From assembly GCA_022561875.1 (NCBI GenBank), contig JADFQJ010000007.1, forward strand, positions 3,482 through 67,481: a stretch of DNA of 64,000 bases, read 5' to 3'. Positions 22,285-40,026 of the stretch are shown here, one piece after another; position 1 is the first letter of the stretch, and each line of letters opens with the position of its first letter. Source of the stretch: Bacteroidota bacterium (GTDB taxonomy: Bacteria > Bacteroidota > Bacteroidia > Bacteroidales > VadinHA17). Under the pieces are notes generated by a model. That model was not told where the DNA came from. It was given only the letters and a program-made list of their open reading frames with translations, and made no database searches. A program made the position numbers and the translations under genes.

Positions 22285-23625
22285 TTATCCAATTTTTATT
22301 TCGAGAATTTCTGTCGTTGACTTTGTTATCCTGAACCTGTTATCAATACGCCTGCCCACAACCCAAATAATTATATCACCCGAAGTAAGTATCCATAAGT
22401 TTTCCTTTTCAACCAGTGACAGCTTTTCATCGATAAAGAAATCACTGAGTTTTTTTGTGTCCTGCATTCCCAAAGGATGAAAATAATCACCGGCTTTCCA
22501 TTTCCTGAGGATCAAAGGATATTCAATCATTGATGCGTCAATCCAGGCAGTATGCGGGGAAACTGGAATATTTAAGTCGGACTGTACTGAGAATTTCCTG
22601 AATGACAACCGTATGGGTTGAATGATTTTTTCGGTCTTCTTGTCGATATAGCATTTTCCTGTTGTCTCTTTCTTCTGTGGTGTAATAATCAGGTGGTCCC
22701 TGTCTTTAATAAGCCGGTGGGTTGGTGAATAAAATTGTTTGCCTGAAATTCCGTCGAGAGATCCAACAATATCAGGAATTACCTGTGGAGGGAAATGATA
22801 CGGTCTAAGAAATTCATATAGATATGTGGCGCTGTGTGAAAGGCTCCTGAGCTTATATATATCAATCAGGGTTTTATCACCAATCTCAGTAACTGTTTGC
22901 TTTTTTTCCTTTTTAACTGCGATTTCGAATATTTCATAAGATTCTTTTAGCTGGTCGATAGTTTGTGAAAAGGAATTTATAAAATCAGGGTTCAATTCTT
23001 CAAACTCAGGAATAATCTGGTGCCTGATCATGTTTCGTTTATACCTAACCTGGGCATTACTGGAGTCTTCACGGTAAGAAAAATGGTGATCATCTGCATA
23101 TTTGGTTATTTCTTCCCTGGTTGCGAACAGCAGTGGTCTGATAATATTACCGGATTTATTTTTTATTCCGGTAAGACCTTTTAAACCTGTTCCCCTGGCA
23201 ATGTTGAGCAGTACAGTTTCAAGAACATCATTCTTATTATGTGCCAGTGCTATATAATTAAAACCTTCAGCGACCCTGATCTTTTCAAACCATTCGTATC
23301 GGAGGTCCCTTGCTGCCATTTGAATGGAGACCCTCTTTTCTTCAGCATATTTTCCGGTATTGAAACTTTCTGCGTAGAAAGGCGTATTAGAATTTTTAGC
23401 GAATTCACGGACAAATTTTTCATCATTATCTGATTCCGCACTTCTTAACTGAAAATTGCAATGCACAATACCAATATTGTTATCTGTTTTCAGGAAAAGG
23501 TTGGCCATTACCATGCTATCGATTCCCCCGCTAACAGCAAGTAATACCTTATCAGTTCCGGAAAAAAGCTGATTCCGGCTGATAAAGTCAGTAAATAACA
23601 ACAATAGGTTATCAGTGTTCTCCAT
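22285..23625 (-). CDS. tilS: tRNA(Ile)-lysidine synthetase
   Basis: 446 aa. PP-loop AVSGGIDS near the N-terminus, C-terminal TilS substrate-binding region. Confidence 0.9.
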   Translation of the reverse strand: MENTDNLLLLFTDFISRNQLFSGTDKVLLAVSGGIDSMVMANLFLKTDNNIGIVHCNFQLRSAESDNDEKFVREFAKNSNTPFYAESFNTGKYAEEKRVSIQMAARDLRYEWFEKIRVAEGFNYIALAHNKNDVLETVLLNIARGTGLKGLTGIKNKSGNIIRPLLFATREEITKYADDHHFSYREDSSNAQVRYKRNMIRHQIIPEFEELNPDFINSFSQTIDQLKESYEIFEIAVKKEKKQTVTEIGDKTLIDIYKLRSLSHSATYLYEFLRPYHFPPQVIPDIVGSLDGISGKQFYSPTHRLIKDRDHLIITPQKKETTGKCYIDKKTEKIIQPIRLSFRKFSVQSDLNIPVSPHTAWIDASMIEYPLILRKWKAGDYFHPLGMQDTKKLSDFFIDEKLSLVEKENLWILTSGDIIIWVVGRRIDNRFRITKSTTEILEIKIG

Positions 23626-23680
23626 GGAATGCAGAGATTTTAAAGTAAAATACGATTTTTTTTCTGATAATTACAGATCA

Positions 23681-25627
23681 TTACCTGAATTCCAGAATTC
23701 CGGGAGCATTTACATCGAAATCTCTCGGGTCAAATAATCTTTCTCCTGAGATGTGAATAAATTGTTTCGAGAAATCAACCGGCAGCCTTGGATAGAAAGC
23801 CAGGCGGATCTGAAAGGTTTTAAAAACAAGTCTCTCATTTCTGATTCTTAGTCCTACTCCAATAGCTGAATAGAGATCGTTTCTGAAAATATTATACTTG
23901 TTGGACCCGATAAATCCAAAGTCTGTGAAGCCATAGAAAGCAAACCGGAATCCATAAGCATAGAAGGGAGAGAATGCAACGGTTTCAAGACTCATTGTCA
24001 GACGGTGAGTCCCACTGAGACTGTCGCTGCTTAGGCCGCGTATTCCATTTTTATTAGAGATATTGATCTGCTCATCTTCAAACCGCCTGATACCTATTGT
24101 ATAATCGAGAACAATAAATTGTCTGATATGATAGTTTCGAAAAGGAAAGAGGTTTGTAAAATAACTTGACTTGAGATGAAATAATCCCTGCCTGTATTGA
24201 TGTCCTGACAAAAACCCTGCAAATCCAATGGTTGTATGTAAATAGCCCAGTTTCTCGTAATAATTTCCGTGTGAGAATGTTACTCCGGTGTAATAACGAT
24301 TATAGAATTCATTGTCTTCATATCCTCCGGTAAACTCAAGCAGCATACCGTATGGAATATCCTCAGTAGTTCCGTAATTATAGATCAGGCTTGACTTGTA
24401 ATATTTTTGTCTGGAAAATGCAATACTACCCAGGTACAATTGGAAATTGTGAAGATCATAATAAGAATCTTCATCAATTTCCGGCCTTTCATAAATATTA
24501 TTGAATAGAAATCTTCCTGAGACGATCAAGCGTGACCTTGAAGCGTAATTAAGCATGAATGATCTGCCCAGCCAGTAATCCTGGTAGTTGTATATGAAGG
24601 GGGTAGGGCCGGGTAAAGTATCAAGATCCTCATAGGTAGATGTGTTCGTAATATTAATACCTCCTGCATACTTAGTATATGGTGTGAAGAATTTTCTTGA
24701 CAGGTTTATCCCAATTGATTCAGTATTGAAGGCATTTTTGTAATTTAGAATACCTTTAATAAAGCTACCCCTGATATTATCGATCTTGTACACTCCCTCA
24801 TATCCCCTGCTTGGAACTGTATCGTAGTTAAAAAACAATTTAGCTTTCATTTCATGACCGATACCAATGATATTCTTGTCGAATATCTCCAGTTTTCCGG
24901 AATTGATGTCGTAAAATTGCAGATCCAGCCCAAGTGAAAATTTGTCTTTTGTGATCACCAGAACATCAACAATTTCATCCGATACCGGAATAAGTATTAT
25001 CCTGGCATCTTCAATATACGGAAGGTTCCTGATAATTCTTTCATTATCAGCCAGAACATATGGATTAACTTCGTCTCCTCTTTCAATTATCAGGTTATTT
25101 CGTATATACCTTTCCCTGGTTTTGATATGTATTTTGTTCAGGGTTCTGCTAATCCATGCTGTATCAATAATGGATGTATCACGAATCACCGGACCAAAAA
25201 CGTCAAGTTCGAGTATTCTGACATTGCGAATGATTTTTCCTTCATGTTTAACAAACTCCTGCTCACTTTTACTGGTTTTCTCATCATAAATGCCTGCAGG
25301 TGCACTGGTGAACAGCCAGTTATATAATTCACGTGTCCATTCATACTTACCGGCCTTTATTCTTAATGAATCATAAAAACTTCTTGAACGTTTAAGTTTT
25401 GAGGAATCGATCGGAGAGAGTATCTGCTGTTCTAAAAACCTTATGGAGTCTCCGGGAATGTATATAATACTGTCACCGACAAGGAAATATTCTCCCTTGC
25501 GGATTAAAACACTATCCCTGTTGTTATCGGGTTCCTGTCCTGTAACCAAAGAAGTTAGCGCTATAAACACTATTGTTATGAAAACAAATTTATAAATAAC
25601 AATAATATGAGACAGGATTTTTGTCAA
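23681..25627 (-). CDS. putative outer-membrane Omp85/BamA-like beta-barrel protein
   Basis: 648 aa. N-terminal signal/anchor, POTRA-like segment (YIEDARIILIPVSDEIVDVLVITKDK), long alternating aromatic beta-strand pattern to the C-terminus. Confidence 0.5.
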   Translation of the reverse strand: MTKILSHIIVIYKFVFITIVFIALTSLVTGQEPDNNRDSVLIRKGEYFLVGDSIIYIPGDSIRFLEQQILSPIDSSKLKRSRSFYDSLRIKAGKYEWTRELYNWLFTSAPAGIYDEKTSKSEQEFVKHEGKIIRNVRILELDVFGPVIRDTSIIDTAWISRTLNKIHIKTRERYIRNNLIIERGDEVNPYVLADNERIIRNLPYIEDARIILIPVSDEIVDVLVITKDKFSLGLDLQFYDINSGKLEIFDKNIIGIGHEMKAKLFFNYDTVPSRGYEGVYKIDNIRGSFIKGILNYKNAFNTESIGINLSRKFFTPYTKYAGGINITNTSTYEDLDTLPGPTPFIYNYQDYWLGRSFMLNYASRSRLIVSGRFLFNNIYERPEIDEDSYYDLHNFQLYLGSIAFSRQKYYKSSLIYNYGTTEDIPYGMLLEFTGGYEDNEFYNRYYTGVTFSHGNYYEKLGYLHTTIGFAGFLSGHQYRQGLFHLKSSYFTNLFPFRNYHIRQFIVLDYTIGIRRFEDEQINISNKNGIRGLSSDSLSGTHRLTMSLETVAFSPFYAYGFRFAFYGFTDFGFIGSNKYNIFRNDLYSAIGVGLRIRNERLVFKTFQIRLAFYPRLPVDFSKQFIHISGERLFDPRDFDVNAPGILEFR

Positions 25628-25901
25628 TTTATACAGGGTGCTTAAGTTCAGTTTTTAACCAAAGTAAACAATTTTCAGTTAATAAGTTTTGCGACCCTAA
25701 ATTTTAATATAAATATTTTATTCTGCAAAGATAATGTAATGTATTAGTTTGCAAATAACCAAAATTAGTTTAAAATATTAATCAAATATTGCTTTTTTAA
25801 TTACTTTATGAAGCTATGTTTATAAGAAGTGTTTACTTTGTACCGGGTATTATTGATTATGATTTTTTATTGGGTTCCGGAATTCAGAAACAAATTGATT
25901 T

Positions 25902-26339
25902 ATGAATATTCCAAAACCAGGTGTTAATCATAAAACACTTAGTATAGTATCTGCAATTATGTGGGGTGTAGTAGGAATTATGCTAAATTATTTTGCAGTA
26001 AAGTGGTTCAATTTATTTAGTAATATTGAAATTATCCTCGCAATTGCGGGTGGGATTTTTCTGGGAGTCATTGTCGCTTTCACCGGGTTTAGAAAAATTG
26101 CCAGAAAAAATATTTTCAGAATAAAAGACTTGCCTGAAAAAGCATGTGTTTTTGCTTTCCAGTCCTGGAAAAGTTATTTGATTATAATTGTAATGGTAAG
26201 CATGGGAATCTTTCTTAGAAAAACTCCTTATATGCCTAGATTATTTCTTGCTCCTGTGTATATTGGGATCGGACTTGCTTTGTTTGGTTCAAGTTTAGAA
26301 TATTATTATGATCTGGTTATGAAAAAGATAACAAAATAA
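25902..26339 (+). CDS. small integral membrane protein, unknown function
   Basis: 145 aa with 4 hydrophobic helices. No recognisable motif. Confidence 0.5.
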   Translation: MNIPKPGVNHKTLSIVSAIMWGVVGIMLNYFAVKWFNLFSNIEIILAIAGGIFLGVIVAFTGFRKIARKNIFRIKDLPEKACVFAFQSWKSYLIIIVMVSMGIFLRKTPYMPRLFLAPVYIGIGLALFGSSLEYYYDLVMKKITK

Positions 26340-26611
26340 TCAGCCAGCGGCAGGGAATCCCTCCCGGGTGACCTAAGTTATTCAACAGGGCAGGCAGAAA
26401 TAAAAAAGATAACTATTCATTCTCACAAATCAAAACTTAACACTAAAACCTTAGAATTACTTATGTCAGAACTTATGGATAATAGCAGGATCAGGATAAA
26501 TAACTTGCTTGCTTTTTCATCAGGGATTGTTGAAGGTAAAGACGGTTCAGAGAAGAGAATGTTCTTTTCCCTGTTGCACTGGAAACTGTTAATGAAAAAC
26601 ATTGGGACGAA

Positions 26612-27157
26612 ATGGTTGATCAAAGCTATGATATAGGTTTCTCGTTTATTGAAACTCCGGTAAGAGAGAAAAAAATATCCGGTTCTGAAGGAAAGAACAA
26701 GTTTACCGGAGATATGAATGGAGTTTTGGATGTTGTTGATCTTCAGGGCATGAAACTGGACCTGGGCACCGGACAGGTTGATCTGGAACAAATAATAACA
26801 ATGCTTAATTCTCTCCCGGTTGACTTAACATTTGTAGATAAAAATAACAAAGTTATGTTTTTTTCAACTCCGGAACATAGAATATTTACCAGATCGAAAG
26901 CAATAATTGGGAGGGATGTGGAAAATTGCCATCCGCCTGAGAGTGTCCATATTGTAAAAAAAATTATAAAGGCTTTCAGGGCAGGAGAGAAGAAGAAAGC
27001 TAGCTTCCGGATTGAAGCAGGTGGCAAGTTCATTCTGGTACAGTATTTTGCCTTGCATGATAATAAAGGGCAATACCTTGGAGTTTTGGAGGTTAGTCAG
27101 GATGTTACTGAAATTAGAAACTTGAAAGGTGAAAAAAGATTATTGGATTGGGAATGA
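26612..27157 (+). CDS. DUF438/PAS-domain protein (short form)
   Basis: The ORF track gives 181 aa. The conserved part starts near ATG 26714 (LPVDLTFVDKNNKVMFFS...IGRDVENCHPPES...LEVSQDVTEI). The stop overlaps the next start (ATGA at 27154-27157). Confidence 0.7.
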   Translation: MVDQSYDIGFSFIETPVREKKISGSEGKNKFTGDMNGVLDVVDLQGMKLDLGTGQVDLEQIITMLNSLPVDLTFVDKNNKVMFFSTPEHRIFTRSKAIIGRDVENCHPPESVHIVKKIIKAFRAGEKKKASFRIEAGGKFILVQYFALHDNKGQYLGVLEVSQDVTEIRNLKGEKRLLDWE

Positions 27158-27501
27158 TGATAACAAAAACTAAAATTGAGAAACGGACCCTGTTTCTCAT
27201 GATAAAGATTTACTGCAACTATCATCACCATACAAAAGATATATGTGATGATTGTTCCAGTCTTTGTAATTATGCTGTTCTTAGGGCTGATAAATGCCCA
27301 TTCGGGACCAGAAAACCTGTTTGCGCAGCATGCACGATACATTGTTATAATCTTGAAATGAGAGAACGGATCAGGAAAGTTATGAGGTTCTCAGGACCTA
27401 GGATGATTTTCAGGCATCCTGTTTTTGCATTGATCCATCTGTATAGGGAAATAACTGATAAAAAGCATAAAAATCTGAAAGTTTTGCGATACGGCAAATA
27501 A
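27148..27501 (+). CDS. nitrous-oxide-stimulated-promoter family protein (YgbA-like, Cys-rich)
   Basis: About 115 aa (ATG at 27154 likely). Motifs YCNYHHH, CDDCSSLCNYA, KCPFG..KPVCAACTIHCY, RKVMRFSGPRM. Confidence 0.75.
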   Translation: MGMMITKTKIEKRTLFLMIKIYCNYHHHTKDICDDCSSLCNYAVLRADKCPFGTRKPVCAACTIHCYNLEMRERIRKVMRFSGPRMIFRHPVFALIHLYREITDKKHKNLKVLRYGK

Positions 27502-27783
27502 CTATTTTCATGTTTTCCACACTTTTTCAGCAGTCTGGCCGCTTACTGTAAATTAATAATTATTCTTTTTTATGCGATTTTACTTTTAACTTTAACCAAC
27601 TTTTGCTTTTGTCAGACAATAAATGTTTTTGTCTTGCAGTTTTATGCGTAGTCTAAAATTTAATCACGGCATTAGTTACATGATTATTTTTATGAACTTT
27701 GAATAGCCTTGCCGGAACACCGCATTACTGCAACACTGCAACATCGCAACACAATTCCTAAACCACAACTCTTAACCCGTAAC

Positions 27784-27825
27784 CACAGTGAAATATGCTC
27801 CTTCGTCGCATTTCACGTGGCAAGC
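27784..27825. repeat. GTGAAAT-arm structured repeat element, simple copy
   Basis: caCAGTGAAATATGCtccttcgtcGCATTTCACgtggcaagc. Confidence 0.85.
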
Positions 27826-27914
27826 CCGAAACTCTAAACCCGTAATAATTCATCTTCTCCATGAGATTCCCTATCTTACATCAAATTCTCAATAATCAGA
27901 AAAACAATACGTGA

Positions 27915-29351
27915 ATGACTATATCAGGATCAGGCAAAGTTATACCCCACTTGAATTTGCTCACACGTGAACAGAAAGGGGAGATTCATGAGCATTCAAT
28001 AAAAATTCTTTTTTCAACGGGTATCAGGGTGGATTCTCATGAAGCAAGAAAGATTTTCAGGAAAACAGGAACTGCAACTGAAAAGAATGACAGAATTTTT
28101 CTGTCGCGGGAACTGGTTGATTGGGCGATAAAGACAGCTCCTTCTGATTTCACAATATATAACAGATCAGGGAAAGTTGCTTTCGATATAGGTGCGCATC
28201 ATCTTGATAAAACCCGTTTTGGGATTGGAGTAACAAACACTCATTACCAGGAGCCAGGACCCGGTAAAGTCATTAAATTTCTGCGAAAACATATGGAGGT
28301 TTCAACCCGTTTGGGTGATGCTTTACCAAATTTTGACATTATTTCAACTATCGGTATTCCTTCAGATGTTTCCCCGGAATCATCTGATTTATTTGGGGTT
28401 CTGGATATGTATGCTAATACGGAAAAACCTCTTATTATTCTTGTATTGAAAGATAATACAATTTTAAAGGTATTTGATCTCCTGGAACACCTTCACGGAA
28501 ATATTTCCGGTAAACCATTTGTATTGGCTTACGTAAACCCTGTTACTCCCTTAATTATTAACGATAGTACGGTTGAAAAAATGATCGCAACTGTACAAAG
28601 AGGTTTGCCGGTGATTTATTCAAATTATAGTATGTACGGGGCAACAACTCCTTTTTCTTCGGCTGGTACAATAGCATTATTAAATGCTGAATTGCTGGCT
28701 GGACTTGTTTTGAGTCAGCTGATAAAAGAAGGAACCCTTGTTATGCTTGGAAGCCTTCCCGCAGGATTTGAAATGACCACTATGAGCAGTACCTATACTC
28801 CGCAATCATTTCTCATGAATCTTGCATGTGCTGAAATGATGGAATATTATAGTATTCCACACTGTGGCACATCAGGCAGTGGTAATGGCTGGGGACCTGA
28901 CCTGCTTGCAGGCAACGCACTTTGGATGAATCATCTAACCAGTTGCATAGGAAATGTTGGTTTGGCTCCATTTGTTGGAGGTAATTTTGATTCACGTACC
29001 TTTTCACCAACAACAGTAGTTTATGCAGACACAATAATTAAGATGGCAAAGAATTTTGCAAGCGGCTTTTTGCTGGATGAGAAATCAGCAGCACTGGAGG
29101 AGATAAATTCTGTTGGCCCCGGAGGAGATTTTCTAATATCTGAAAGTACTATTAAAAATTACAGAAAAGAGATAGAGAATAATCCGGTGTGGCCTGCTAC
29201 AACCCTCGAAAAGTGGCTTAAAAGCGGTAACCCGAGGGCTATTGATTTATTGGAAGAGCATACACTGGAATTGATAGAGAATTTGAAAACTCCTCCTGAT
29301 TACAACGAGTTAATCAGCCAGGGGGAGGAATTTATTAATAAATTGAGCTAA
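27915..29351 (+). CDS. trimethylamine methyltransferase (MttB) superfamily protein, non-pyrrolysine type
   Basis: 478-aa uninterrupted ORF collinear with MttB/MtgB-type TIM-barrel methyltransferases. No in-frame TAG at the position of the MttB pyrrolysine. Confidence 0.8.
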   Translation: MTISGSGKVIPHLNLLTREQKGEIHEHSIKILFSTGIRVDSHEARKIFRKTGTATEKNDRIFLSRELVDWAIKTAPSDFTIYNRSGKVAFDIGAHHLDKTRFGIGVTNTHYQEPGPGKVIKFLRKHMEVSTRLGDALPNFDIISTIGIPSDVSPESSDLFGVLDMYANTEKPLIILVLKDNTILKVFDLLEHLHGNISGKPFVLAYVNPVTPLIINDSTVEKMIATVQRGLPVIYSNYSMYGATTPFSSAGTIALLNAELLAGLVLSQLIKEGTLVMLGSLPAGFEMTTMSSTYTPQSFLMNLACAEMMEYYSIPHCGTSGSGNGWGPDLLAGNALWMNHLTSCIGNVGLAPFVGGNFDSRTFSPTTVVYADTIIKMAKNFASGFLLDEKSAALEEINSVGPGGDFLISESTIKNYRKEIENNPVWPATTLEKWLKSGNPRAIDLLEEHTLELIENLKTPPDYNELISQGEEFINKLS

Positions 29352-29569
29352 AATGAACTAAATTGACTAAAATGAGCTAAGATGAAAAAGAAATGATATA
29401 ACAAATTCATTATTATTTCTTTACGTTGACTTTATGGAAGATGAAGTCTGTATCTTAAGCACTACATTTTTTAACATTTAAGTTTCTCCGATAGAGTTCT
29501 TCGAACGAATATTTTTTAACCGGGCTTGCGAACTCAACGAAGTCAAATTCCGATATATAATATTTAGGC

Positions 29570-30910
29570 ATGAATAAAAAACCGGGAACAAGTTCAGGGC
29601 AGACTATGGGATTATGGATGAGTACTGCACTTGTTTCAGGGAACATGATCGGATCCGGAATTTTTTTATTACCATCGGCTTTAGCACTTTATGGAGGAAT
29701 TTCGATTATTGGATGGCTCTTTTCGACTGTGGGAGCTATTTTACTTGCTGTTGTGTTTTCACGCTTAAGCAGACTTGTAAAAGGGGTTGGCGGACCATAT
29801 ATATATGCGAGAAGTAGTTTTGGTGATTTTGCCGGTTTTCTGGTGGCATGGGGTTACTGGATTTCAATATGGTCGGGAAATGCTGCAATTTCTGTAGCAG
29901 CAATTGGTTATCTCAGTTATTTCTGCCCGGCAATAGCAGGAAATTATTTCTTGTCAGGATTACTCGCAGTATCAGCTATTTGGCTTTTTACCTGGATTAA
30001 TACCCTCGGTATACGCAAGGTAGGGTTTGTGCAGCTTATTACTACACTCCTTAAGATTATACCACTCATTGCAATTGCAATATTTGGTTTTTTCTATTTT
30101 GATCCGGATAACTTTAAACCATTTAATTTAAGCGGGGAGCCTGCATTTTCTGCAATTGGACGTACTGCAGCCCTTACATTATGGGCTTTTCTTGGTCTTG
30201 AATCGGTTACTATTCCTTCAGACAAAATAAAAGATCCGGAGAGGACCATCCCACGAGCTACAATAATCGGAACATCGTTGGTTGCTTTTATTTATATCAG
30301 TAGCATTGTTGCGGTTATGGGTATTATTTCCCCTCAGTTACTTGCAAATTCTGCTGCCCCATTTGCTGATGCAGCAAAGAGTATCTGGAATTCATGGGCT
30401 GGTTATGCAATTTCAGGTGGAGCTGTTATTGCGTGTTTTGGAGCGCTGAACGGATGGACACTTCTTCAGGGACAGATACCGATGGCTGCCGCAAAAAATA
30501 ATATTTTTCCAAAGATATTCAGAAAAACCTCAAAAAAGAATATACCAATATATGGACTGGTTATTTCAAGTATACTGGCAACAGTGCTTATTTTTATGAA
30601 TTATACACGGGGATTGGTTGAAATGTTCACCTTTATCATTATGATGGCTACTTTTGCAACCCTTTTACCTTATCTGCTGTCAACAGCATCTGAACTGGTA
30701 ATATACTATCGCAATCAAAAAAAATATAATCAAAAACAGTTAATTGGAAAATCGATTATTTCCATCCTGGCATTTCTGTTTTCAATTTGGGCAGTAGTTA
30801 GTTTAGGACTGGAGATAATTGGTTTGGGATTATTGCTTCTTCTTGCCGGTGTCCCGTTTTATCTTTGGCTAAAGAAAGGTTTTCTTTCTGGCAATAAAAA
30901 CAAGTCCTGA
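29570..30910 (+). CDS. APC-superfamily basic amino acid/polyamine antiporter (AdiC/PotE/CadB-like)
   Basis: 446 aa, 12 predicted TM helices. N-terminal SGNMIGSGIFLLP and overall collinearity with E. coli AdiC as recalled. Confidence 0.8.
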   Translation: MNKKPGTSSGQTMGLWMSTALVSGNMIGSGIFLLPSALALYGGISIIGWLFSTVGAILLAVVFSRLSRLVKGVGGPYIYARSSFGDFAGFLVAWGYWISIWSGNAAISVAAIGYLSYFCPAIAGNYFLSGLLAVSAIWLFTWINTLGIRKVGFVQLITTLLKIIPLIAIAIFGFFYFDPDNFKPFNLSGEPAFSAIGRTAALTLWAFLGLESVTIPSDKIKDPERTIPRATIIGTSLVAFIYISSIVAVMGIISPQLLANSAAPFADAAKSIWNSWAGYAISGGAVIACFGALNGWTLLQGQIPMAAAKNNIFPKIFRKTSKKNIPIYGLVISSILATVLIFMNYTRGLVEMFTFIIMMATFATLLPYLLSTASELVIYYRNQKKYNQKQLIGKSIISILAFLFSIWAVVSLGLEIIGLGLLLLLAGVPFYLWLKKGFLSGNKNKS

Positions 30911-31066: not shown

Positions 31067-32542
31067 TTAATATGCTATGGCAAAAACAACCCTTTTGTTT
31101 GATGGTTTACCTGTATAGATGCATTTTCCTTTTTCTTGTTTTCCGTCAAGCGGGATACACCTTATTGTAGCTTTGGTTTCTTTGCTTATTTTTTTCTCAG
31201 TTTCGGAAGTGCCATCCCAGTGGGCGAGAATGAATCCTCCTTTCTCCCTGAGAATTCTTTTAAAATCTTCATAAGTATCCACTTTATGGGTGTTTTCATC
31301 TCTGAATTTCCTTGCTTTAATAAAGATGCCTGCCTGGATGTCTTTCAGCAGGTTTACTATATGGTCAGTGATATTTTCCTGCCTGATCACTTCTTTTGTT
31401 AATATATCCCTGCGTGCAATTTCAACTGTACCATTGGCAATATCCCTCGGACCCACAGCAATTCTTACAGGGACTCCCTTTAGCTCATACTCAGCAAATT
31501 TCCACCCGGGTTTTTGAGTGTCTCTGTCATCGTATTTTACCGAGATGCCATTTTTAGTCAGGTTTTCTTTAATTTGTTCAGCTACACCAGAGATCTTTTC
31601 CAGTTCATCGTTGCCTTTATATATAGGAACAATTACAACCTGGATTGGGGCAAGATTAGGAGGCAGGATAAGTCCGTTATCATCAGAGTGTGCCATAACC
31701 AGAGCGCCAACCAGCCTTGAAGAAACCCCCCAGGAAGTAGCCCAGACCAGATGCTGTTTACCATTCTTATCAGTAAATTTAACATCAAAGGCCCTGGCGA
31801 AGTTTTGACCAAGAAAATGGGATGTTCCGGCTTGTAATGCCTTACCGTCCTGCATCAGGGTTTCAATAGCATATGTATCAACTGCTCCGGCAAATTTCTC
31901 ATTCTCCGATTTTAATCCTTTGATAACCGGTATTCCCATATAGTTTTCAATAAAATCAGTGTAAAGGTTAACAATCTTCTCTGTTTCTTCAATTGCTTCT
32001 TCTCTTGTTGCATGGGCCGTATGACCTTCCTGCCATAGAAATTCGGAAGTTCTCAGAAAAAGCCGTGTTCTCATTTCCCATCTGACCACATTAGCCCATT
32101 GATTAATAAGCAGCGGAAGATCACGATAAGACTGTATCCAGTTTTTGAAAGTGTGCCAGATAATAGTTTCGGATGTTGGACGGATAATTAATTCTTCCTC
32201 AAGTTTGGCATTTTCATCAACAATCAACCCCTTTCCGTCAGGATCTTTCTTTAACCTGTAATGGGTAACAATTGCACATTCTTTGGCAAATTCTTTGACA
32301 TGCTCGGCTTCCCTGCTGAAAAAGGATTTTGGTATAAACAAAGGAAAATAGGCATTACTATGGCCGGTAGCCTTTAACATTCTGTCGAGTTCGGCTTGTA
32401 TTTTTTCCCAGATCGCGTATCCGTATGGTTTTATTATCATGCATCCACGAACAGGTGAGTTCTCGGCAAGATCAGCTTTTATCACTAAGTCGTTGTACCA
32501 CTGTGCGTAATTATCTTCTCTCTTTGTTAATACTTTTGCCAT
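31067..32542 (-). CDS. proS: prolyl-tRNA synthetase (archaeal/eukaryote-like type)
   Basis: 491 aa. Class II aaRS motifs, C-terminal zinc-binding-like extension ending in ...FAIAY. Confidence 0.93.
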
Positions 32543-32649
32543 GATCTTTTTTGGTATGGAATTTGCCTTATTATTTTCAAAGGATTTAAAAAGTCTTGCA
32601 AAGTAAATAAAATCTATCAGATTAATAAAACAGAAACAGGAGGTAAGTC

Positions 32650-33684
32650 ATGAAAACAAAAGTAAAAATATACATTATAGCTGCAAGCCTGGGATTTTTA
32701 AATGCACAGGCATTTACAGCTTCCTCCGGTTTAGACCAGAGAGACCATTTCCGGTTTGACAGAATTAATCCTGCCGGTCAGGACATAATTATTGAGAATA
32801 ACTATTATTACGGAGATGGAGATTATATCTACGATTATTACTATGCTTCCAGAATAAGAAGGTTTCACAGACCTTATGTTTCTTATTCTTATTATAATTC
32901 ATATTATACTGATTGTTACTGGTATACTTATGAACCCATATTCTGGGGTATGAGTATCTATCTTGGATCAATGTGGAATCCCGTAGGGTTAACTATCTCA
33001 TTTGGATCTCCTTTCAGGTCATACTATAGATCATATTATTATGATTCGTATCCTTTGTATCCTGTATATAATATAGTGTACAGACCCAGGATCGTAAACA
33101 GGTATTATTTCAATACCTGGTATGGAAACAGGATCCGTTATGCCAGACCATTTTACGCAAACAGATACGGTTATCATTATAATACCTGGAATAGTAATTA
33201 TGGTCATTACTCACACTCTGATAGCTATGCATATAATTACCGGGCAAGTGACAGTTACAGGGGAAACAGGGTTGTACCTTCACAAACCTCGAAAAAAAAC
33301 GCAAACACCAGAACAGTTACCAATACCAGGAGATATACCCCGGCATCTAATTATGATCGCAGTAATACCAAATCTCAATACAAACCAGAAACGAGGAGAA
33401 GTAACTATGTGCCACGCAGGAATGAAACTGGCCGTTCAGTGTATAAGGCTCCTCAAAAGAACAGTACCAGGTCAAGAGTTTCATCACCTGTAGATAACAG
33501 ACGTTCACAGAGTTATCGTTCATCGACACCCAAAAACAGGAGCAGTGTGAAAGCGACCAAATCAGGGAGAAGCAGTTCGTCTAAAAAAGTAACCAAATCT
33601 TCCCGAAGCAGCAGGTCAAAGGCATCAAAGTCGAGATCAGGTGGCAGATCTTCTTCGAAAAAATCTTCAGGCAGGAAACGATAA
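32650..33684 (+). CDS. exported Tyr-rich / Ser-Arg-rich low-complexity protein (paralog 1)
   Basis: 344 aa. Signal peptide ending LNAQA, Tyr-dense core (NNYYYGDGDYIYDYYYASRIRRFHRPY...), strongly basic S/R/K/T/N tail. AGGAGG lies 7 nt upstream of the ATG. Followed by terminator 33693-33717. Confidence 0.75.
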   Translation: MKTKVKIYIIAASLGFLNAQAFTASSGLDQRDHFRFDRINPAGQDIIIENNYYYGDGDYIYDYYYASRIRRFHRPYVSYSYYNSYYTDCYWYTYEPIFWGMSIYLGSMWNPVGLTISFGSPFRSYYRSYYYDSYPLYPVYNIVYRPRIVNRYYFNTWYGNRIRYARPFYANRYGYHYNTWNSNYGHYSHSDSYAYNYRASDSYRGNRVVPSQTSKKNANTRTVTNTRRYTPASNYDRSNTKSQYKPETRRSNYVPRRNETGRSVYKAPQKNSTRSRVSSPVDNRRSQSYRSSTPKNRSSVKATKSGRSSSSKKVTKSSRSSRSKASKSRSGGRSSSKKSSGRKR

Positions 33685-33692
33685 TTAATTTT

Positions 33693-33717
33693 AAAACCCG
33701 GACAAACCGGGTTTTTT
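33693..33717 (+). terminator. rho-independent terminator after Tyr-rich paralog 1
   Basis: AAAACCCGG acaa ACCGGGTTTTTT, followed by further T residues, 9 nt after the stop. Confidence 0.8.
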
Positions 33718-33926
33718 CTTTTTTTTAGTTTGTTTGAATTTATTACATTTGTTAGTGTTTATGAAATTTTTCAGAGTTATTTCACACAGGTAATTGTTAC
33801 AAGGAAAGATAAAAGCAGAAAAATAAAGGTAATAATGCAGGTTAGGTAAGTTTATTGAAATAATGTTCTGTTTGGTATAAAATTTGTTTATTTATAAATT
33901 AAAGAAACTTATCAGGAGGTTACAAT

Positions 33927-35171
33927 ATGAAAACCAGGTTATACATAATCATTTTAGCATCGGGTTTACTTGGGGCTTGTTCAGGAAGCATGATGCTGTC
34001 GACGGGGTATGATGATATATATTATACTCCGGGAGATGAACCAGGCCAAGCAGTTATTAAAAAGTCTGCAGCTTCATTGGATAATGCTTACAGGGCGATG
34101 GACTTTTCTGATGCTGGTACAACTGAAAAAGGATTAAATGTTTACCAGACAGATACACTTCAGGCTGACGCCTATTATGAAGCAGGTGACAGTTTAATGA
34201 TAGTTAATAACTATTATGAAAATGAAGGGTACGATTACTATTCCGGGATACCTTATTCTTCACGAATCAGGAGATTTTACAGGTATTCACCTTCATTTAG
34301 CTACTATAGTCCCTATTATAGTTCATTCTATGATCCATTCCGGGGTGATCCTTTCTATTTCGGGTTTAATTCAGGATATAACATGTTTAATCGCGGATAT
34401 TATGGGAGTTCGTATTATGGTTATAGTCCGTATTATAATGATTGGTACTACCCGGGTTCATTTTATTATGGATCATACGGGTCAGGATTCTGGTCACCAT
34501 ATTCTTCTTACTCCTATTGGGGAAGTCCCTATTATTACAATTCCGGAGTATATTACAGGAGTACAGGAAGATCGGATGATATTTATGTAGGACATCGCAG
34601 GTCAAATATGACAAACAGGAATGTTATAAGTACCTCTAACCGGTCAAAAAGCAATTATGCAAATTATAGAGATGCAAATAGAAGAACTAATACGAATTCT
34701 TCAGGAAGGACACCCGGTCAGGTGACCACAAGCAGGAATACCCGAACTGTTAACAATACCAGCACCATAAACAGAAGAACAGGAACTGCTTCAAACAGGG
34801 TTACTACTACCAGGGTTCCTCAAAAGAATTCGACTGTTAACACGAACAGGAGATCGTCAACTTACATACCCAGATATTCCAGACCAAAGGTCACTTCCAA
34901 ACCGACCTACAATCGTAGTACAAGAACTTATCAGGGCAGGAGTTCCGGCAGTTCATCAGGATCGTCAAAGTCGGTTTATTCAAGACCACGGTCTACCGGT
35001 AAGTCAACTTACTCAAGACCGGTAAATCGAAGTTCCAGATCGGGTGGAACATCGTACTCAGGGTCGGGTCGCAGCAGTTCATCTTCATATAGCCGGGGTT
35101 CAAGCTCGTCTGGTTCAAGGAGTTCAGGTTCATCAGGAAGAAGCTCCGGCGGATCAGGACGCAGAAGATAA
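33927..35171 (+). CDS. Tyr-rich / Ser-Arg-rich low-complexity lipoprotein (paralog 2)
   Basis: 414 aa. Lipobox LLGAC. Shares the NNYY...SRIRRF(Y/H)R...SYYSPYY core with paralog 1. Long S/R/T/N/G tail ending GGSGRRR. AGGAGG upstream of the ATG. Confidence 0.75.
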   Translation: MKTRLYIIILASGLLGACSGSMMLSTGYDDIYYTPGDEPGQAVIKKSAASLDNAYRAMDFSDAGTTEKGLNVYQTDTLQADAYYEAGDSLMIVNNYYENEGYDYYSGIPYSSRIRRFYRYSPSFSYYSPYYSSFYDPFRGDPFYFGFNSGYNMFNRGYYGSSYYGYSPYYNDWYYPGSFYYGSYGSGFWSPYSSYSYWGSPYYYNSGVYYRSTGRSDDIYVGHRRSNMTNRNVISTSNRSKSNYANYRDANRRTNTNSSGRTPGQVTTSRNTRTVNNTSTINRRTGTASNRVTTTRVPQKNSTVNTNRRSSTYIPRYSRPKVTSKPTYNRSTRTYQGRSSGSSSGSSKSVYSRPRSTGKSTYSRPVNRSSRSGGTSYSGSGRSSSSSYSRGSSSSGSRSSGSSGRSSGGSGRRR

Positions 35172-35272
35172 AAACTGGTTTTATTAAAATTTTCGTTGAT
35201 TTGAATACGAAAATAATAACCGGATCGAATTCCGGAAAGGGAAAAGAACACTGAATTTTATACTTAAACATC

Positions 35273-36763
35273 ATGAAAAGAATATATTTAGCAATAATTA
35301 TAACTGTAGCATCAGGTGTATCAGGGTTTGCCCAGGGCGAACTTGATGCTCTCAGGTATTCTCAAAACTTTAATGGTGGCTCTGCGAGATTCACCGGTAT
35401 GGGTGGTGCATTTGGTGCACTGGGAGGCGACTTTTCAGCTTTGTCTGTTAACCCCGCAGGTTTAGGTGTTTTTCGCAGTAGTGAATTTAGTATTACACCA
35501 TCGATACGATATGATATGGTTCAGACAAATTTTACCGGTAATGTAAATAATGAGTTTAATTATAATTTCAATCTTGATCAGGCAGGATTTGTATCATCAT
35601 TTGATTTAGGAAACAGTGAGGGCTGGACAAATATTAATATTGCTATCGGATATAATAGAATAAACAATTTTAACAGAAATATGATAATCGAAGGTGTTAA
35701 CAACTCAAATTCAATGCTTGACTATTTTGCCAATTCTTCTGATGGAAAACTGCCGGAGGAATTGAATAGCTTCATAGAATTTCTTGCATATGACACATGG
35801 CTTATAGATACAGTGACTAACATGGGTTTCTCAAATTATGAAACTATTCTCTCAAATTACGGTGATGAGACAAATTCAACATATGGACAGGTTCAGCAGA
35901 GGACTTTAAGAAGTACCGGGACTTTGGGAGAATATTTGTTCAGTATTGGTGCAAACTACGGAAACAGTCTGTATATCGGGGCATCGTTTGGTATACAAAA
36001 ACTGAATTACTACGAGAAGAATGAGCATATAGAGTATGATCCTGATGATCATATTTATGATTTTAACAGTTTTACATATTATCAGGATCTCCATACACGG
36101 GGGAGGGGTTATACATTTAAAATGGGAGCTATTTTTAAACCTGTTCAGATGTTGAGGTTAGGTGTTGCTTTTCACCTGCCAACTTTTTTCAAACTTGAGG
36201 ATGAATACTATTCTTATATCGATGCCTCGTTTGATAACGTTGATGCTGATGGAGTTAAAGATTACAGTTCTGATTCCCCTGATCTATTCTATCAGTATGA
36301 ATTGACAACTCCTTTTAAAGCCGTTGGAAGTGTGGCTTACCAGTTTGGGAAACGGGCGCTTTTAAGTATTGATTATGAATTTGTTGATTATTCCGTGGCA
36401 CGCCTCAGAAAAGGAGAGGATGGCTATAATTTTAACGATGAGAACAATGCCATTGAAGATGCTTACAGGAAAACAGGTAATTTCAGAGCAGGTGGAGAAT
36501 ACAGGCTGGGAGCTATTTCCCTGAGAGGAGGTTACGCTTTCTATGGTAGTCCGTATGCTGAATCTGAGGCTAATAAGGATGCAAGTTACTCGCTGATTTC
36601 TGCAGGTATCGGATTCAGTCAAAAGAAATTTTATATGGACCTTGGTTATTCACATATGATGCATGAAGAACAGTATTTTATGTATCCTTCTGCAAATGTA
36701 GCGCCCTCGGTAAACGAGTCAAATACTAACAAGTTCCTGGCTACTTTTGGATTTAAATTCTAA
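35273..36763 (+). CDS. FadL/TodX-like outer-membrane beta-barrel protein
   Basis: 496 aa. Signal peptide ending GFAQG, N-terminal DALRYSQ...ARFTGMGGAFGALGGD motif, alternating beta-strand pattern, C-terminal aromatic signal FGFKF. Confidence 0.6.
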   Translation: MKRIYLAIIITVASGVSGFAQGELDALRYSQNFNGGSARFTGMGGAFGALGGDFSALSVNPAGLGVFRSSEFSITPSIRYDMVQTNFTGNVNNEFNYNFNLDQAGFVSSFDLGNSEGWTNINIAIGYNRINNFNRNMIIEGVNNSNSMLDYFANSSDGKLPEELNSFIEFLAYDTWLIDTVTNMGFSNYETILSNYGDETNSTYGQVQQRTLRSTGTLGEYLFSIGANYGNSLYIGASFGIQKLNYYEKNEHIEYDPDDHIYDFNSFTYYQDLHTRGRGYTFKMGAIFKPVQMLRLGVAFHLPTFFKLEDEYYSYIDASFDNVDADGVKDYSSDSPDLFYQYELTTPFKAVGSVAYQFGKRALLSIDYEFVDYSVARLRKGEDGYNFNDENNAIEDAYRKTGNFRAGGEYRLGAISLRGGYAFYGSPYAESEANKDASYSLISAGIGFSQKKFYMDLGYSHMMHEEQYFMYPSANVAPSVNESNTNKFLATFGFKF

Positions 36764-37426
36764 TCATATAACGGTATCTTTACCAGTAGTGATTATTGAT
36801 TTCTTCAACAATTCCGCACTCCCCGGACCTAAATTAAATAGCAGATCGAGAATACTCAGATTTGGAATAAAACCATGTTTTGGGCTGAATACCTGTGTGT
36901 ATTCAAGATTCTTAAAGAAAGGATCTCTGAAAGTTTTTTTAGGGTGTATTTTCTCCCTGAAATCAAGCAGTTTTGAAGGATATTGTTTTATGAAAGATTT
37001 AGTAAAAGAAAAACCCTGTTTAATTTCAAGGTGGCGTAACAAAATTTTCATAAGAGAAGTGTTATAGTCGATCAGATAACGGATTTTTTGCTGATAACAG
37101 GGAATTAAATCGTCAATATAAAACTCAAAAAATGGGGCGGATTTATATGATGAAATAATTGAACGCAAGTGATTTGCCTGCCAGTCAGTAACATAATCGA
37201 TCTCGAGTTCATTAATAGCTGTTTTATGAAAACTTCCCCGTTGTACCGGTACTGCAAGAGTTAAAGGACCATTAGCGCCGTATATTACGCATCTGTTGCG
37301 GTAAGATTGTTTTAGATAGTTTTCGTTTTTTTCGATCAGAACAGGGTATGGCAGAAAAAACCTGGAGTAGTAACAGATTGGACCAAGATAGGCTGTGGAA
37401 AGAATTATAGATTCTTTTTCTGGCAT
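36764..37426 (-). CDS. WbqC-family protein
   Basis: 220 aa. N-terminal ILSTAYLGPICYYS...EKNENYLKQSYRNRC pattern of the WbqC family. Confidence 0.75.
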   Translation of the reverse strand: MPEKESIILSTAYLGPICYYSRFFLPYPVLIEKNENYLKQSYRNRCVIYGANGPLTLAVPVQRGSFHKTAINELEIDYVTDWQANHLRSIISSYKSAPFFEFYIDDLIPCYQQKIRYLIDYNTSLMKILLRHLEIKQGFSFTKSFIKQYPSKLLDFREKIHPKKTFRDPFFKNLEYTQVFSPKHGFIPNLSILDLLFNLGPGSAELLKKSIITTGKDTVI

Positions 37427-37583: not shown

Positions 37584-38330
37584 TTATAATTTATTTATCA
37601 TACTTGCATTGAAACCGGCACCAAATCCATTATCAATATTCACTACCGATACCCCGTTGGCACAACTTGTAAGCATAGCAAGAAGTGCTGAAACGCCCTG
37701 AAAATTAGCGCCATAACCCACGCTTGTTGGCACGGCGATGATGGGTTTGTTAATCAGACCACCAACAATACTTGCCAGGGCGCCTTCCATTCCCGCAATC
37801 ACAACTACGACCCTGGCCTGACGCAAGACAGATATATTGTCAACAAGGCGATGCAAACCGGCAACTCCTGCATCAAATATCCTTTCTACCTTGTTTCCGA
37901 GCAGCTCGGCTGTAACAGCAGCTTCTTCAGCAACAGGAATATCAGCGGTTCCGGCAGTTATGATTGCTATATATGTTTCACCTGTTTTAACCTTTCGTTG
38001 TTGCACACTTATTATCCGGGCAATATTATAATATTTGGCTGATGGAATTGTTTTTTTTAAGGTATCAAATATTTTCTGGTTTGCACGTGTGGCTATTACA
38101 TTCCCACCCTTTTCATACATATGTTCTGATATCTTTACTATCTGGTCAATGGTTTTTCCTTGACAAAAGATGATCTCAGGATATCCTGTTCGTATTTCCC
38201 GGTGGTGATCGATCTTTGCAAATCCAAGATCAGAATAGGGAAAATCTTCCAGTTTCCGTAGAGCATCATCAACTTCCAGTTTTTGTTCCTGTACCTGCGT
38301 TAATATTTTTTTTAATTCCTCTGAGTTCAT
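37584..38330 (-). CDS. larB: nickel-pincer cofactor biosynthesis protein LarB (PurE-like carboxylase/hydrolase)
   Basis: 248 aa. N-terminal helical extension, then PurE-like fold (ITAGTADIPVAEEA...IAGMEGALASIVGG...PTSVGYG). Confidence 0.85.
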   Translation of the reverse strand: MNSEELKKILTQVQEQKLEVDDALRKLEDFPYSDLGFAKIDHHREIRTGYPEIIFCQGKTIDQIVKISEHMYEKGGNVIATRANQKIFDTLKKTIPSAKYYNIARIISVQQRKVKTGETYIAIITAGTADIPVAEEAAVTAELLGNKVERIFDAGVAGLHRLVDNISVLRQARVVVVIAGMEGALASIVGGLINKPIIAVPTSVGYGANFQGVSALLAMLTSCANGVSVVNIDNGFGAGFNASMINKL

Positions 38331-38859: not shown

Positions 38860-40026
38860 CTACAGTAGTTTATTTATTTCATTCATTACTTCGTGCAGCG
38901 AGATATTGTGTTTTCGGGCAATTTCTTTGCAGTCGTCGTATTCAGGTTTGCTATGAATCTTCGCTCCGTTCAGCCATGATGATTTTATTCTTACTTTCCC
39001 CCACTTAGTATCGATATCTGAAAACTTCCTTTCAAGGCTTGTTTTATTTACTTCATAATCTCTTATTCCAATTGATGTAGTTTCAGTAAGAAGCGTTTTT
39101 TTAATTACTTTAAGATCTCTTGTTCTGCATAATACATTGATCTTTATTCCGGGTCTGCTTTTTTTCATAAGAATAGAGGTAAGAAACACGTCTACAGCTC
39201 CGGCTTCATATAATTTTTCGATAACATGTTCATAATACTCAGGATTCATATCATCGATATTGCACTCGATCATATGATTTGTATAACCCTTTTCAGGCAG
39301 AGCGGATTCCTCCATCAATTCACCCAGGTAAACCCTCAGCAGATTTGGGATCTTTCCCTTTTTATGGCCCACCCCGTAACCTGTCTTACGGATATTGATA
39401 AAGGGTTTATCCGTAAATTCATTTACAGTGGCTGCAATGATTGCTGCTCCCGTAGGGGTGGTTGCTTCAAAATCTACGGTTCCCATCCTAACAGGTATCC
39501 CCTTTAGTATTTCTGCAGTTGCAGGTGCGGGAACAGGTAATGTGCCATGTGAACATTTAACAAAACCACCACCAACTTCAATGCCGGAGGCAATTATTTT
39601 ATCGGGTTTGAAATAATTCATCGCTATGGCTGCCCCCACAATATCAACAATTGAATCAACAGCGCCTACTTCATGGAAATGGACCTTTTCAACTGGCGTA
39701 TTATGGACTTTTGCTTCTGCAATGGCAATTTTTCTGAAGATAAGCAGGCTTAATTCCTTAATTTCATCATTAAGGGTGCTTGACCTGATTATATTCTCAA
39801 TGTCAGACATATGGCGGTGAACATCGGTCTTTCCCATAATAACATCTACTTTTGTCCCGAAAATTCCATGTCTGTGATCCCTGGTTATCTGTAATTCATA
39901 TTTGTCAACATCTAATCTGTCCAGTTCATTTTTGAGATATTCAGGATCAAGGCCAAGGTCAATCATGGCACCCAGGTTCATATCTCCGCTTATTCCTGCA
40001 AAGCAATCGTAATACAGTATCTTCAT
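38860..40026 (-). CDS. larC: nickel insertion protein LarC (DUF111)
   Basis: 388 aa. N-terminal YYDCFAGISGDMNLGAMIDLG, HFHEVGAVDSIVDIVG, C-terminal nickel-binding-domain-like region. Confidence 0.88.
   Translation of the reverse strand: MKILYYDCFAGISGDMNLGAMIDLGLDPEYLKNELDRLDVDKYELQITRDHRHGIFGTKVDVIMGKTDVHRHMSDIENIIRSSTLNDEIKELSLLIFRKIAIAEAKVHNTPVEKVHFHEVGAVDSIVDIVGAAIAMNYFKPDKIIASGIEVGGGFVKCSHGTLPVPAPATAEILKGIPVRMGTVDFEATTPTGAAIIAATVNEFTDKPFINIRKTGYGVGHKKGKIPNLLRVYLGELMEESALPEKGYTNHMIECNIDDMNPEYYEHVIEKLYEAGAVDVFLTSILMKKSRPGIKINVLCRTRDLKVIKKTLLTETTSIGIRDYEVNKTSLERKFSDIDTKWGKVRIKSSWLNGAKIHSKPEYDDCKEIARKHNISLHEVMNEINKLL

Follow-up and report, generated by a model that had tools for sequence, protein, structure and literature searches.

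A Tyr-rich, predicted disordered lipoprotein and a FadL-fold barrel form a conserved two-gene outer-membrane module across Bacteroidota

Work from 2025 has shown that Bacteroidota organise their outer membrane unlike Escherichia coli, with FadL-like barrels serving as platforms for lipoproteins (PMC12578637, PMC12611786). In the β-barrel assembly machinery (BAM) of these bacteria, the surface lipoprotein BamH has a conserved, lipidated N-terminal tail that is gripped by the conserved N-terminus and the extracellular groove of the FadL-like barrel BamG; an operon encodes a paralogous pair, BamG2-BamH2, and BamA carries a flexible Tyr/Gly/Asn-rich loop, EL3, whose role is unexplained (PMC12578637, PMC12611786). 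The present analysis concerns a second such barrel-lipoprotein pairing, conserved and, judging from the syntenic genes of Flavobacterium johnsoniae, expressed, in a 64,000-nucleotide (nt) stretch of a Bacteroidota metagenome-assembled genome (MAG; assembly GCA_022561875.1, contig JADFQJ010000007.1, positions 3,482 to 67,481 of the forward strand), hereafter the window. Its genes p2 and p3 encode a Tyr-rich lipoprotein and a FadL-fold barrel, respectively, and are preceded by p1, which encodes a paralog of p2. The p3 subfamily is new within a known fold and the pairing of barrel and lipoprotein is a known theme of Bacteroidota, while the predicted disordered Tyr/Arg lipoprotein partner is without a described counterpart.

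The p2 open reading frame (ORF; 33927..35171, + strand; 414 amino acids, aa) encodes an outer-membrane lipoprotein predicted to be disordered, and p3 (35273..36763, + strand; 496 aa) the FadL-fold outer-membrane barrel that is its conserved partner; p1 (32650..33684, + strand; 344 aa) encodes a secreted, non-lipidated paralog. In the present annotation the lipoprotein appears only as a 'hypothetical protein', as does p1, while the name given to the barrel, 'outer membrane protein transport protein', is that of a generic transporter (MCH7657301, MCH7657302 and MCH7657303 for p1, p2 and p3). An earlier note, made from the sequence alone, had described three ORFs here: two exported paralogs with a common motif, extreme Tyr content and basic tails made of Ser, Arg, Thr, Asn and Lys (S/R/T/N/K), the first with a signal peptide and the second with a lipobox, followed by a FadL/TodX-like barrel with no strong terminator in front of it. 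Each of these points was borne out by the results given below. The gap between p2 and p3 measures 101 nt and no + strand terminator-like site was found inside it. A strong intrinsic terminator lies directly 3' of p1 (33693..33725, + strand; 9-bp stem AAAACCCGG/CCGGGTTTT, hairpin 33693-33715, then a T-run), which argues that p1 is a separate transcription unit and that the operon consists of p2 and p3; an AT-rich spacer of 242 nt separates p1 from p2, and an Rfam scan of positions 32400-37000 returned no RNA family.

Gene order was surveyed both from the barrel (one genome per species; best 80 of at least 577 relatives) and from the lipoprotein (a metagenome scan with a motif built from 8 sequences, yielding 78 loci, of which 39 contained the whole gene followed by no less than 600 nt). 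The earlier note had called for such a survey of co-occurrence, and linkage was strong in both directions. Barrel-anchored loci came mostly from Bacteroidales MAGs, together with Marinifilum, Labilibaculum, Perlabentimonas and one bin labelled Chlorobiota, and the same-strand gene just 5' of the barrel was of the Tyr-rich lipoprotein type in about 72 of the 72 loci with enough upstream DNA (400-670 aa, 8-15% Tyr, 60-92% S/R/T/N/K/G in the last 120 aa, mostly with a lipobox and a ...GRR end). From the lipoprotein, the barrel was found directly 3' in 37 of 39 loci. Where enough upstream DNA was available, the Tyr-rich gene was preceded by a divergent proS, without exception among the barrel-anchored loci and in 36 of 37 of those anchored on the lipoprotein; the lipoprotein-barrel gap had a median of 81 nt. 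The same order was seen in seven neighbourhood look-ups, including Fulvivirga (Cytophagales), and ProRS Pfam domains were found in related loci; in the window this conserved divergent neighbour, given here as context only, is the prolyl-tRNA ligase gene proS (31067..32542, - strand; assigned from its translation). On these synteny counts, the 'trio' proposed in the earlier note stands in part: the lipoprotein-barrel unit next to proS is conserved, whereas p1, with its own terminator, is a lineage-specific duplicate; a second, upstream copy of p1 type occurred in 24 of 76 loci. Thus, p2 and p3 constitute a conserved two-gene outer-membrane module across Bacteroidota, and it is highly probable that the genes are real and form a conserved functional pair.

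The bin labelled Chlorobiota (locus L017, JAADFW010000255.1) carries the full proS-lipoprotein-barrel order; either the module reaches beyond Bacteroidota or the bin is mislabelled.

A first search with p2 returned 123 homologs (400-600 aa, all annotated as hypothetical, none with a Pfam domain), and in a profile search of 1.84 billion cluster representatives 293 clusters scored E <= 1e-30 and 2241 scored E <= 1e-10, most of them matching over the full length. The family has a constant order of elements: the lipid Cys, a 10-residue spacer, the motif YDD(L/I)YYxP(S)D, an acidic linker, a NNYY..YDYY..SRLRRFY core, a neutral Tyr/Gly/Pro block and a polycationic Ser/Arg/Thr/Asn tail with a GRR end. 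In an alignment of 76 barrel-proximal members, to which the motif counts refer, a lipobox was present in 69 and the YDD motif, (E)YDD(L/I)YYxP(S)D, in 60; the distance from the Cys to the Tyr of this motif was 10 residues in 46 of 55 members and 9-14 in the rest. In p2 itself the lipobox is LGAC (residues 15-18, lipid cysteine Cys18), and the putative N-terminal tether motif YDDIYYTPGD (aa 28-37; 34008..34037, + strand) begins at Tyr28, exactly 10 residues past Cys18. The motif was also retained near the mature N-terminus of members with a type-I signal peptide (L003, L023, L069 and L075), suggesting that it serves for binding independently of lipidation and is no signal for lipoprotein sorting.

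Beyond this motif, the family alignment showed a DTL motif, the core as NNYY..YDYY..SY..RLRRFY, a neutral Tyr/Gly/Pro/Trp block, the motifs YGRR, P.Y...R.YTPSY.NPR..TRPSYN and SYS.PRSS, and poly-Ser. The corresponding parts of p2 are the core common to p1 (aa 89-169, SLMIVNNYYENEGYDYYSGIPYSSRIRRFYRY...; 34191..34433, + strand), a Tyr/Gly/Ser/Pro/Trp-rich neutral block delimited by composition (aa ~120-215; 34284..34571, + strand), with 28 Tyr, 40 aromatic and only 3 aliphatic residues at positions 121-220, and a polycationic S/R/T/N tail delimited by composition and family alignment (aa 221-414, net charge +38, ending in GRRR; 34587..35168, + strand), with short conserved motifs of the YGRR, P.Y..R.YTP.Y..PR..TRPSYN and SYS.PRSS types. 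Charge is distributed in blocks, with a median net charge of -10 over residues 21-110 and of +16 over the last 150 residues of the family members; the first 220 residues of p2 are acidic to neutral. GRR or RRR was the C-terminal sequence in 47 of 76 members, and GRR, RRR, HRR, SRR or TRR in 59, Lys being rare.

The Tyr content was 14.0% in p1 (48 Tyr; Ser 16%, Arg 12%) and 13.0% in p2 (54 Tyr; Ser 20%, Arg 10%, Gly 10%), the top two values among the 44 long ORFs of the window, whose mean was 4.5% (binomial probability of the excess ~5e-12 each). The cores of both proteins contain 9-13 Tyr per 40-residue window, and S/R/T/N/K make up 70-72% of their tails, that of p1 (aa 221-344) having a net charge of +33. 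The AlphaFold2 model of p2 (81-sequence alignment) had a mean predicted local distance difference test score (pLDDT) of 46, a predicted template-modelling score (pTM) of 0.21 and no secondary structure past the signal peptide; the chain is predicted to be disordered end to end. A Tyr-rich uncharged block followed by an Arg-rich block resembles the low-complexity and RGG/RS regions of FUS-family proteins, which form condensates in eukaryotes; the earlier note had likewise drawn the comparison with FUS-like proteins. The likeness holds for composition only: no homology was found, the canonical [G/S]Y[G/S] motif density is absent, and p2, a bacterial protein that is exported and carries a lipid anchor, has a preference for YY pairs and Pro (5 [GS]Y[GS], 14 YY, 9 RG/GR and 21 RS/SR; family medians 5.5, 11.5, 5 and 18, respectively).

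Pfam and NCBIfam scans of p1 and p2 gave nothing at E <= 1, and the sole match of the p2-family profile in the PDB was a compositional one to a eukaryotic RS-rich, CWF21-domain splicing protein (8xi2_U, E=9e-4). This match covers tail positions 259-436 of the profile and illustrates the close likeness of the tail to RS domains of eukaryotes. The idea that the Ser-rich tail is O-glycosylated was considered and rejected, as only 0-2 D[ST][AILVMT] sites were found, none of them in the tail. The lipoprotein family is without a family model and has no relatives in Pfam, NCBIfam or the PDB, and it merits a model of its own. A literature search found no paper characterising the module, only passing mentions of its F. 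johnsoniae counterparts Fjoh_4940 and Fjoh_4941, and the supplements of the Bacteroides thetaiotaomicron BAM paper held nothing on other FadL paralogs. As neither Tyr-rich protein matched a characterised family in Pfam, NCBIfam or PDB profile searches either, the module does not appear to be a described system, in agreement with the earlier note.

The barrel p3 scored 40.6 bits for the Pfam family Toluene_X (PF03349), whose cut-off is 29.7 (E=1.5e-10, residues 268-473), and has a signal peptide, an N-terminal hatch and a C-terminus (...FGFKF) as in outer-membrane barrels. Its AlphaFold2 model (42-sequence alignment; pLDDT 90, pTM 0.84) shows a barrel of 14 strands and, at the N-terminus, a hatch of 50 residues made up of short helices. 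Foldseek searches of the PDB with this model retrieved FadL from E. coli and Pseudomonas aeruginosa, TodX, TbuX, CymD, and the BAM subunits BtBamG, PgBamG and FjBamG of B. thetaiotaomicron, P. gingivalis and F. johnsoniae (E 1e-16 to 1e-11, 11-14% identity), the top matches being the two FadL proteins, TodX and TbuX (E 1e-16 to 1e-12, template-modelling scores 0.58-0.67). A p3-family profile run against all PDB chains, including 9hiv_F, 9hjm_F and 9n2d_B, matched none at E <= 0.01, the only other value being that of 3dwo at E=0.098. Because no structure was clearly closest and no PDB sequence matched, p3 appears to be a separate FadL-fold subfamily, neither BamG nor PorV. An assignment to BamG was rejected on the lack of a sequence match (BamG chains were absent from the profile matches even at E=10) and on an identity to BamG structures of 12-14%, no closer than to E. 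coli FadL. PorV, the type IX secretion shuttle, is likewise a FadL-like Bacteroidota barrel that binds proteins and does not transport lipids; it was rejected because p3 matched no NCBIfam family of any kind at E <= 1, a collection that presumably includes a PorV model, and because PorV was not among the 50 Foldseek matches listed. As a further difference from the PorV system, p1 and p2 have no type-IX C-terminal domain. The p3 family comprises at least 2912 homologs, full-length and with 40-50% identity, across Bacteroidota.

The mature N-terminus and the hatch are the most conserved part of this family, above all the hatch domain of aa 21-70 (35333..35482, + strand), in which Q21, D25, A26, L27, R28, Y29, S30, Q31, R39, F47, G51, D53, N60, P61, A62, G63 and R68 are invariant or nearly so. 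It includes an NPA motif (N60-P61-A62, nt 35450-35458) whose N60 and P61 are invariant and whose A62 is at least 90% conserved in 42 family sequences. We take this motif to be a hallmark of the FadL hatch, required for transport by FadL according to FadL mutant work; structures of FadL NPA mutants were among the Foldseek matches of p3. Fold, hatch, NPA motif and a Pfam match above threshold are all in common with FadL/TodX/OmpP1 (PF03349). The protein differs in being ~70 residues longer than E. coli FadL, in having its NPA motif ~7 residues further from the mature N-terminus, and in its obligate pairing with a disordered lipoprotein. The Toluene_X match, the fold and the intact NPA motif would suit a transporter that imports or exports some hydrophobic compound (a fatty acid, for example, or a lipid specific to Bacteroidota), with the lipoprotein aiding hand-off, gating or stability on the periplasmic side, or being functionally unrelated and merely co-located, and the induction of the F. 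johnsoniae genes when the lipid- or protein-trafficking factors TamL or LolA1 are missing (see below) would fit a role in lipid homeostasis. Canonical FadL and TodX genes, however, are without such a partner, the low identity to FadL leaves only the fold in common, and it is difficult to see how the pair and its fixed-register motif would have been retained in different classes of the phylum if the two proteins did not interact directly; a transporter of this kind is considered an unlikely account of the module.

In F. johnsoniae the gene order matches that of the window: Fjoh_4939 is proS, Fjoh_4940 a lipoprotein with a signal peptidase II signal and no listed domain, classed as periplasm-facing, and Fjoh_4941 a 55-kDa FadL homolog. 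Both products were detected in membrane and outer-membrane proteomes; upon TamL depletion, Fjoh_4941 rose 5.6-fold and Fjoh_4940 2.6-fold, for which the authors mention a possible functional link, and the spectral counts of Fjoh_4940 had a mean of ~46, close to BamG (PMC12045153). In the outer membrane of a lolA1 mutant Fjoh_4941 was 2.68-fold up, and Fjoh_4940 stood at 0.5-fold in the same supplementary dataset on lolA1/lolB1 mutant outer membranes (PMC11885536). Two of six Fjoh_4941 peptides (SGLISLDYSIK and LDLAYSYLER) scored above all 200 shuffles against the hidden Markov model (HMM) of the p3 family, a weak test, and aligned in the right order to conserved HMM positions 361-367 and 454-462. 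The response of these syntenic genes to TamL and LolA1 points to outer-membrane homeostasis.

The nearest parallel to such a pair remains BamG-BamH, in which a 14-strand FadL-fold barrel with a highly conserved N-terminus likewise has a lipoprotein partner, a paralogous pair is encoded as an operon and the system is, like the present one, specific to Bacteroidota and relatives. BamH, however, has a crescent-shaped fold, lies on the cell surface and carries an acidic export signal, whereas p2 is predicted to be disordered and has no such signal, and the F. johnsoniae BamG is Fjoh_1412, separate from Fjoh_4940/4941. The module is not known to associate with BamA. The presence of three BamG structures among the top Foldseek matches, the same barrel-plus-lipoprotein logic in the BamG2/BamH2 operon, the flexible, Tyr-rich EL3 of BamA and the rise of the F. 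johnsoniae module on TamL depletion and in the lolA1 mutant could suggest an accessory of outer-membrane biogenesis working with BAM, TamL or Lol, in which the Tyr-rich chain, like EL3, would serve as a holdase to client barrels or lipoproteins that are still unfolded. Such a role is quite improbable in view of the missing profile match to BamG, the recovery of these proteins in neither BAM purification (PMC12578637, PMC12611786), the drop of Fjoh_4941 on BamA and BamG depletion, which is the behaviour of a BAM client, and the essentiality column of a supplementary table, blank for Fjoh_4940 and Fjoh_4941 (PMC11885536), whereas BamG is essential. As the two genes are not flagged as essential and genetic tools exist, the module should be directly testable in F. 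johnsoniae.

The likely orientation of the lipoprotein was read from the residues that follow its lipid cysteine. Surface export in Bacteroidota was defined as a minimum of two acidic residues among the six that follow the lipid cysteine (the criterion used in PMC12578637); no acidic residue occurred between positions +1 and +6 in 70 of the 71 family members and the remaining one had a single one, p2 itself reading C-SGSMML. The absence of this signal from the family, together with the lack of a lipid anchor and of a type-IX C-terminal domain in p1, argues for a chain that faces the periplasm, an orientation towards which we lean slightly. The opposite arrangement, in which the barrel would bring the disordered chain to the surface, for instance by way of its lumen or a lateral opening, and the Tyr/Arg region would confer adhesion, build a matrix or bind polyanions or extracellular DNA, has in its favour the tight operon linkage with the barrel, the lateral opening of FadL barrels, through which BamG passes its own N-terminus, the adhesive- or condensate-like composition of Tyr and Arg, and several strands of 22-26 residues in the p3 model, which would project well past the membrane. 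Nevertheless, besides the missing export signal, the F. johnsoniae lipoprotein is classed as periplasm-facing, p1 would have no known route to the surface and the conserved hatch would block a 400-residue chain, so that surface display seems improbable and the surface matrix or adhesive suggested in the earlier note is disfavoured.

The same note had also raised amyloid-like fibres, for which no support was found. That aromatic-rich low-complexity sequences can form cross-beta fibres, and that a barrel is encoded downstream, might be taken to indicate export of the Tyr-rich proteins through it and polymerisation outside, in the manner of curli or Fap. Searches for tandem and long direct repeats at the DNA level in p1 and p2 gave only short TAT-rich matches, and thus no imperfect repeat units of the curli or Fap kind; neither was there homology to CsgA, FapC, CsgG or FapF, and the main protein is lipid-anchored while the barrel has the plugged FadL architecture, which makes a secreted fibre very improbable.

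The reading favoured here, albeit tentatively, is a barrel-lipoprotein complex with a sticky, polycationic tether in the periplasm. The lipidated N-terminal segment of p2 would dock on the p3 barrel through the fixed-register YDD motif, as the BamH tail does on BamG, and by analogy a physical complex of the two proteins is probable. The same precedent speaks for p3 as a membrane platform or anchor rather than a secretion pore, so that of the two roles offered by the earlier note, conduit or anchor, the second would be retained. From this anchor the disordered p2 chain would hang into the periplasm, where the Tyr block and the Arg-rich tail could act as multivalent stickers by Tyr-Arg and Arg-polyanion contacts, the candidate partners being anionic polymers of the envelope such as peptidoglycan, the stickers themselves and the soluble p1; the outcome would be a flexible tether or scaffold for outer-membrane and envelope homeostasis. 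By standard polymer scaling, we estimate that the two ends of a 400-residue coil would lie roughly 15 nm apart, far enough to reach the cell-wall layer. A role as a polyanion or cell-wall tether is possible yet rather doubtful.

Several points weigh against this picture of a barrel-anchored periplasmic tether. The YDD motif is nearly invariant, and covariation is therefore unusable as evidence for p2-p3 contact. The export-signal rule is empirical, and the lipoprotein could reach the surface by threading through the barrel. A working channel for hydrophobic substrates would account for the NPA motif and the conserved hatch no less well than a passive platform. p2 lacks a peptidoglycan-binding domain, and a covalent link as in Lpp is unlikely because the C-terminus is Arg, not Lys. 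The putative place of Fjoh_4940 in the Tyr-rich family follows from gene order, signal type, the absence of a listed domain and the barrel peptides. Lastly, the two lipoprotein-anchored loci without a barrel directly downstream (L133 and L138) carry short variants of 226 aa followed by ORFs that look unrelated.

These miniature lipoproteins (L133, 2832-3512; L138, 93-776) retain the lipobox, EYDDIYY, NNYYY..SRLRRFY, the Tyr block, the basic tail and GRRR; the variant may show the least that the protein needs in order to function, or may mark a lineage that has separated the two genes.

Other envelope lipoproteins offer partial parallels to a tether of this kind. Like p2, the proteobacterial RcsF, threaded through OmpA/C/F and thus also barrel-associated, and LpoB, also of Proteobacteria, which passes through peptidoglycan, span or probe the envelope with a disordered segment of an outer-membrane lipoprotein, but their linkers are of tens of residues and carry a folded domain, whereas the p2 family has 400-670 residues, all of them predicted to be disordered. 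Lpp is similarly an abundant, periplasm-facing outer-membrane lipoprotein with a basic C-terminus; it is a short helical trimer attached covalently via its C-terminal Lys, while the p2 family is predicted disordered and ends in Arg-Arg, so that any attachment would be non-covalent. A covalent, Lpp-like cell-wall tether was accordingly rejected as a candidate, the C-terminus being Arg. To our knowledge, Bacteroidota have no Lpp. If the tether reading is true, the module would be the Bacteroidota answer to the missing tether between outer membrane and cell wall, or a new kind of envelope scaffold, and it could show whether sticker-type disordered proteins operate in the bacterial periplasm. In its broadest form, the family might constitute an unrecognised class of envelope component, namely a phylum-wide, abundant, fully disordered lipoprotein whose Tyr/Arg grammar drives condensate-like or polyelectrolyte interactions in the periplasm or on the outer membrane, anchored to a FadL-fold barrel by a fixed-register peptide; we put this forward as speculative.

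The paralog p1 has a type-I-like signal peptide (..LNAQA) without a lipobox, a Tyr-rich region that extends to about aa 200 and a basic S/R/K/T/N tail after it. BLASTP aligned p1 and p2 through the NNYY..DYY..SRIRRF motif (E=3e-8), and hhalign matched their families with 99.6% probability (E=1.1e-24) over 77 columns, p1 residues 45-134 to p2 residues 89-169. This profile-profile match argues that p1 and p2 are true paralogs through their core, beyond mere composition. The core of p1 (aa 45-134, IIIENNYYYGDGDYIYDYYYASRIRRFHRP...WGMSIYLGSMWNPVGLTISFG...; 32782..33051, + strand) contains many invariant or near-invariant columns in the alignment of its family, which comprises 36 relatives, all annotated as hypothetical; against the PDB, the p1-family profile gave only a chance match at 0.3. 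Among the 24 copies of p1 type, none had a lipobox or the YDD motif and all had the SRIRRF core. The protein is thus a lineage-specific duplicate, secreted and unlipidated, in which the core, the Tyr block and the basic tail persist while the motif at the N-terminus has been lost.

With regard to translation signals, an identical Shine-Dalgarno-like box, AGGAGGT, was read from the sequence 5 nt before the ATG of p1 (32638..32644, + strand) and 6 nt before that of p2 (33914..33920, + strand), and p3 is without one. Strong Shine-Dalgarno sequences are unusual in Bacteroidota, and these boxes may provide for high translation of both disordered proteins relative to the barrel.

Downstream, a WbqC-like gene (36764..37426, - strand; Pfam PF08889, E=1e-31), context only, is convergent with p3; such a gene occupied the same position in roughly half of the related loci (seen across L005-L084) and is thus recurrent, not universal. 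It is followed in the window by a LarB-like (AIRC) gene (37584-38330, - strand) and a LarC-like (Ni_insertion) gene (38860-40026, - strand). In loci L001 and L086 a LarE-like PP-loop gene lies between the LarB-like and LarC-like genes, where the window has ~529 nt without a long ORF, which suggests that its LarE-like gene was lost or decayed. On the other side, proS is directly adjoined in loci L001, L002 and L086 by TilS, a gene of 607-649 aa and a gene of 230 aa, the latter two without a Pfam match. In the window, TilS (22285-23625) and a 648-aa uncharacterised, barrel-looking protein (23681-25627) stand apart from proS, separated from it by genes for a PAS-domain protein (26612-27157), a methyltransferase of the MttB family (27915-29351) and an amino-acid permease (29570-30910); the interval from TilS to proS (22285-30910) looks like an insertion or rearrangement.

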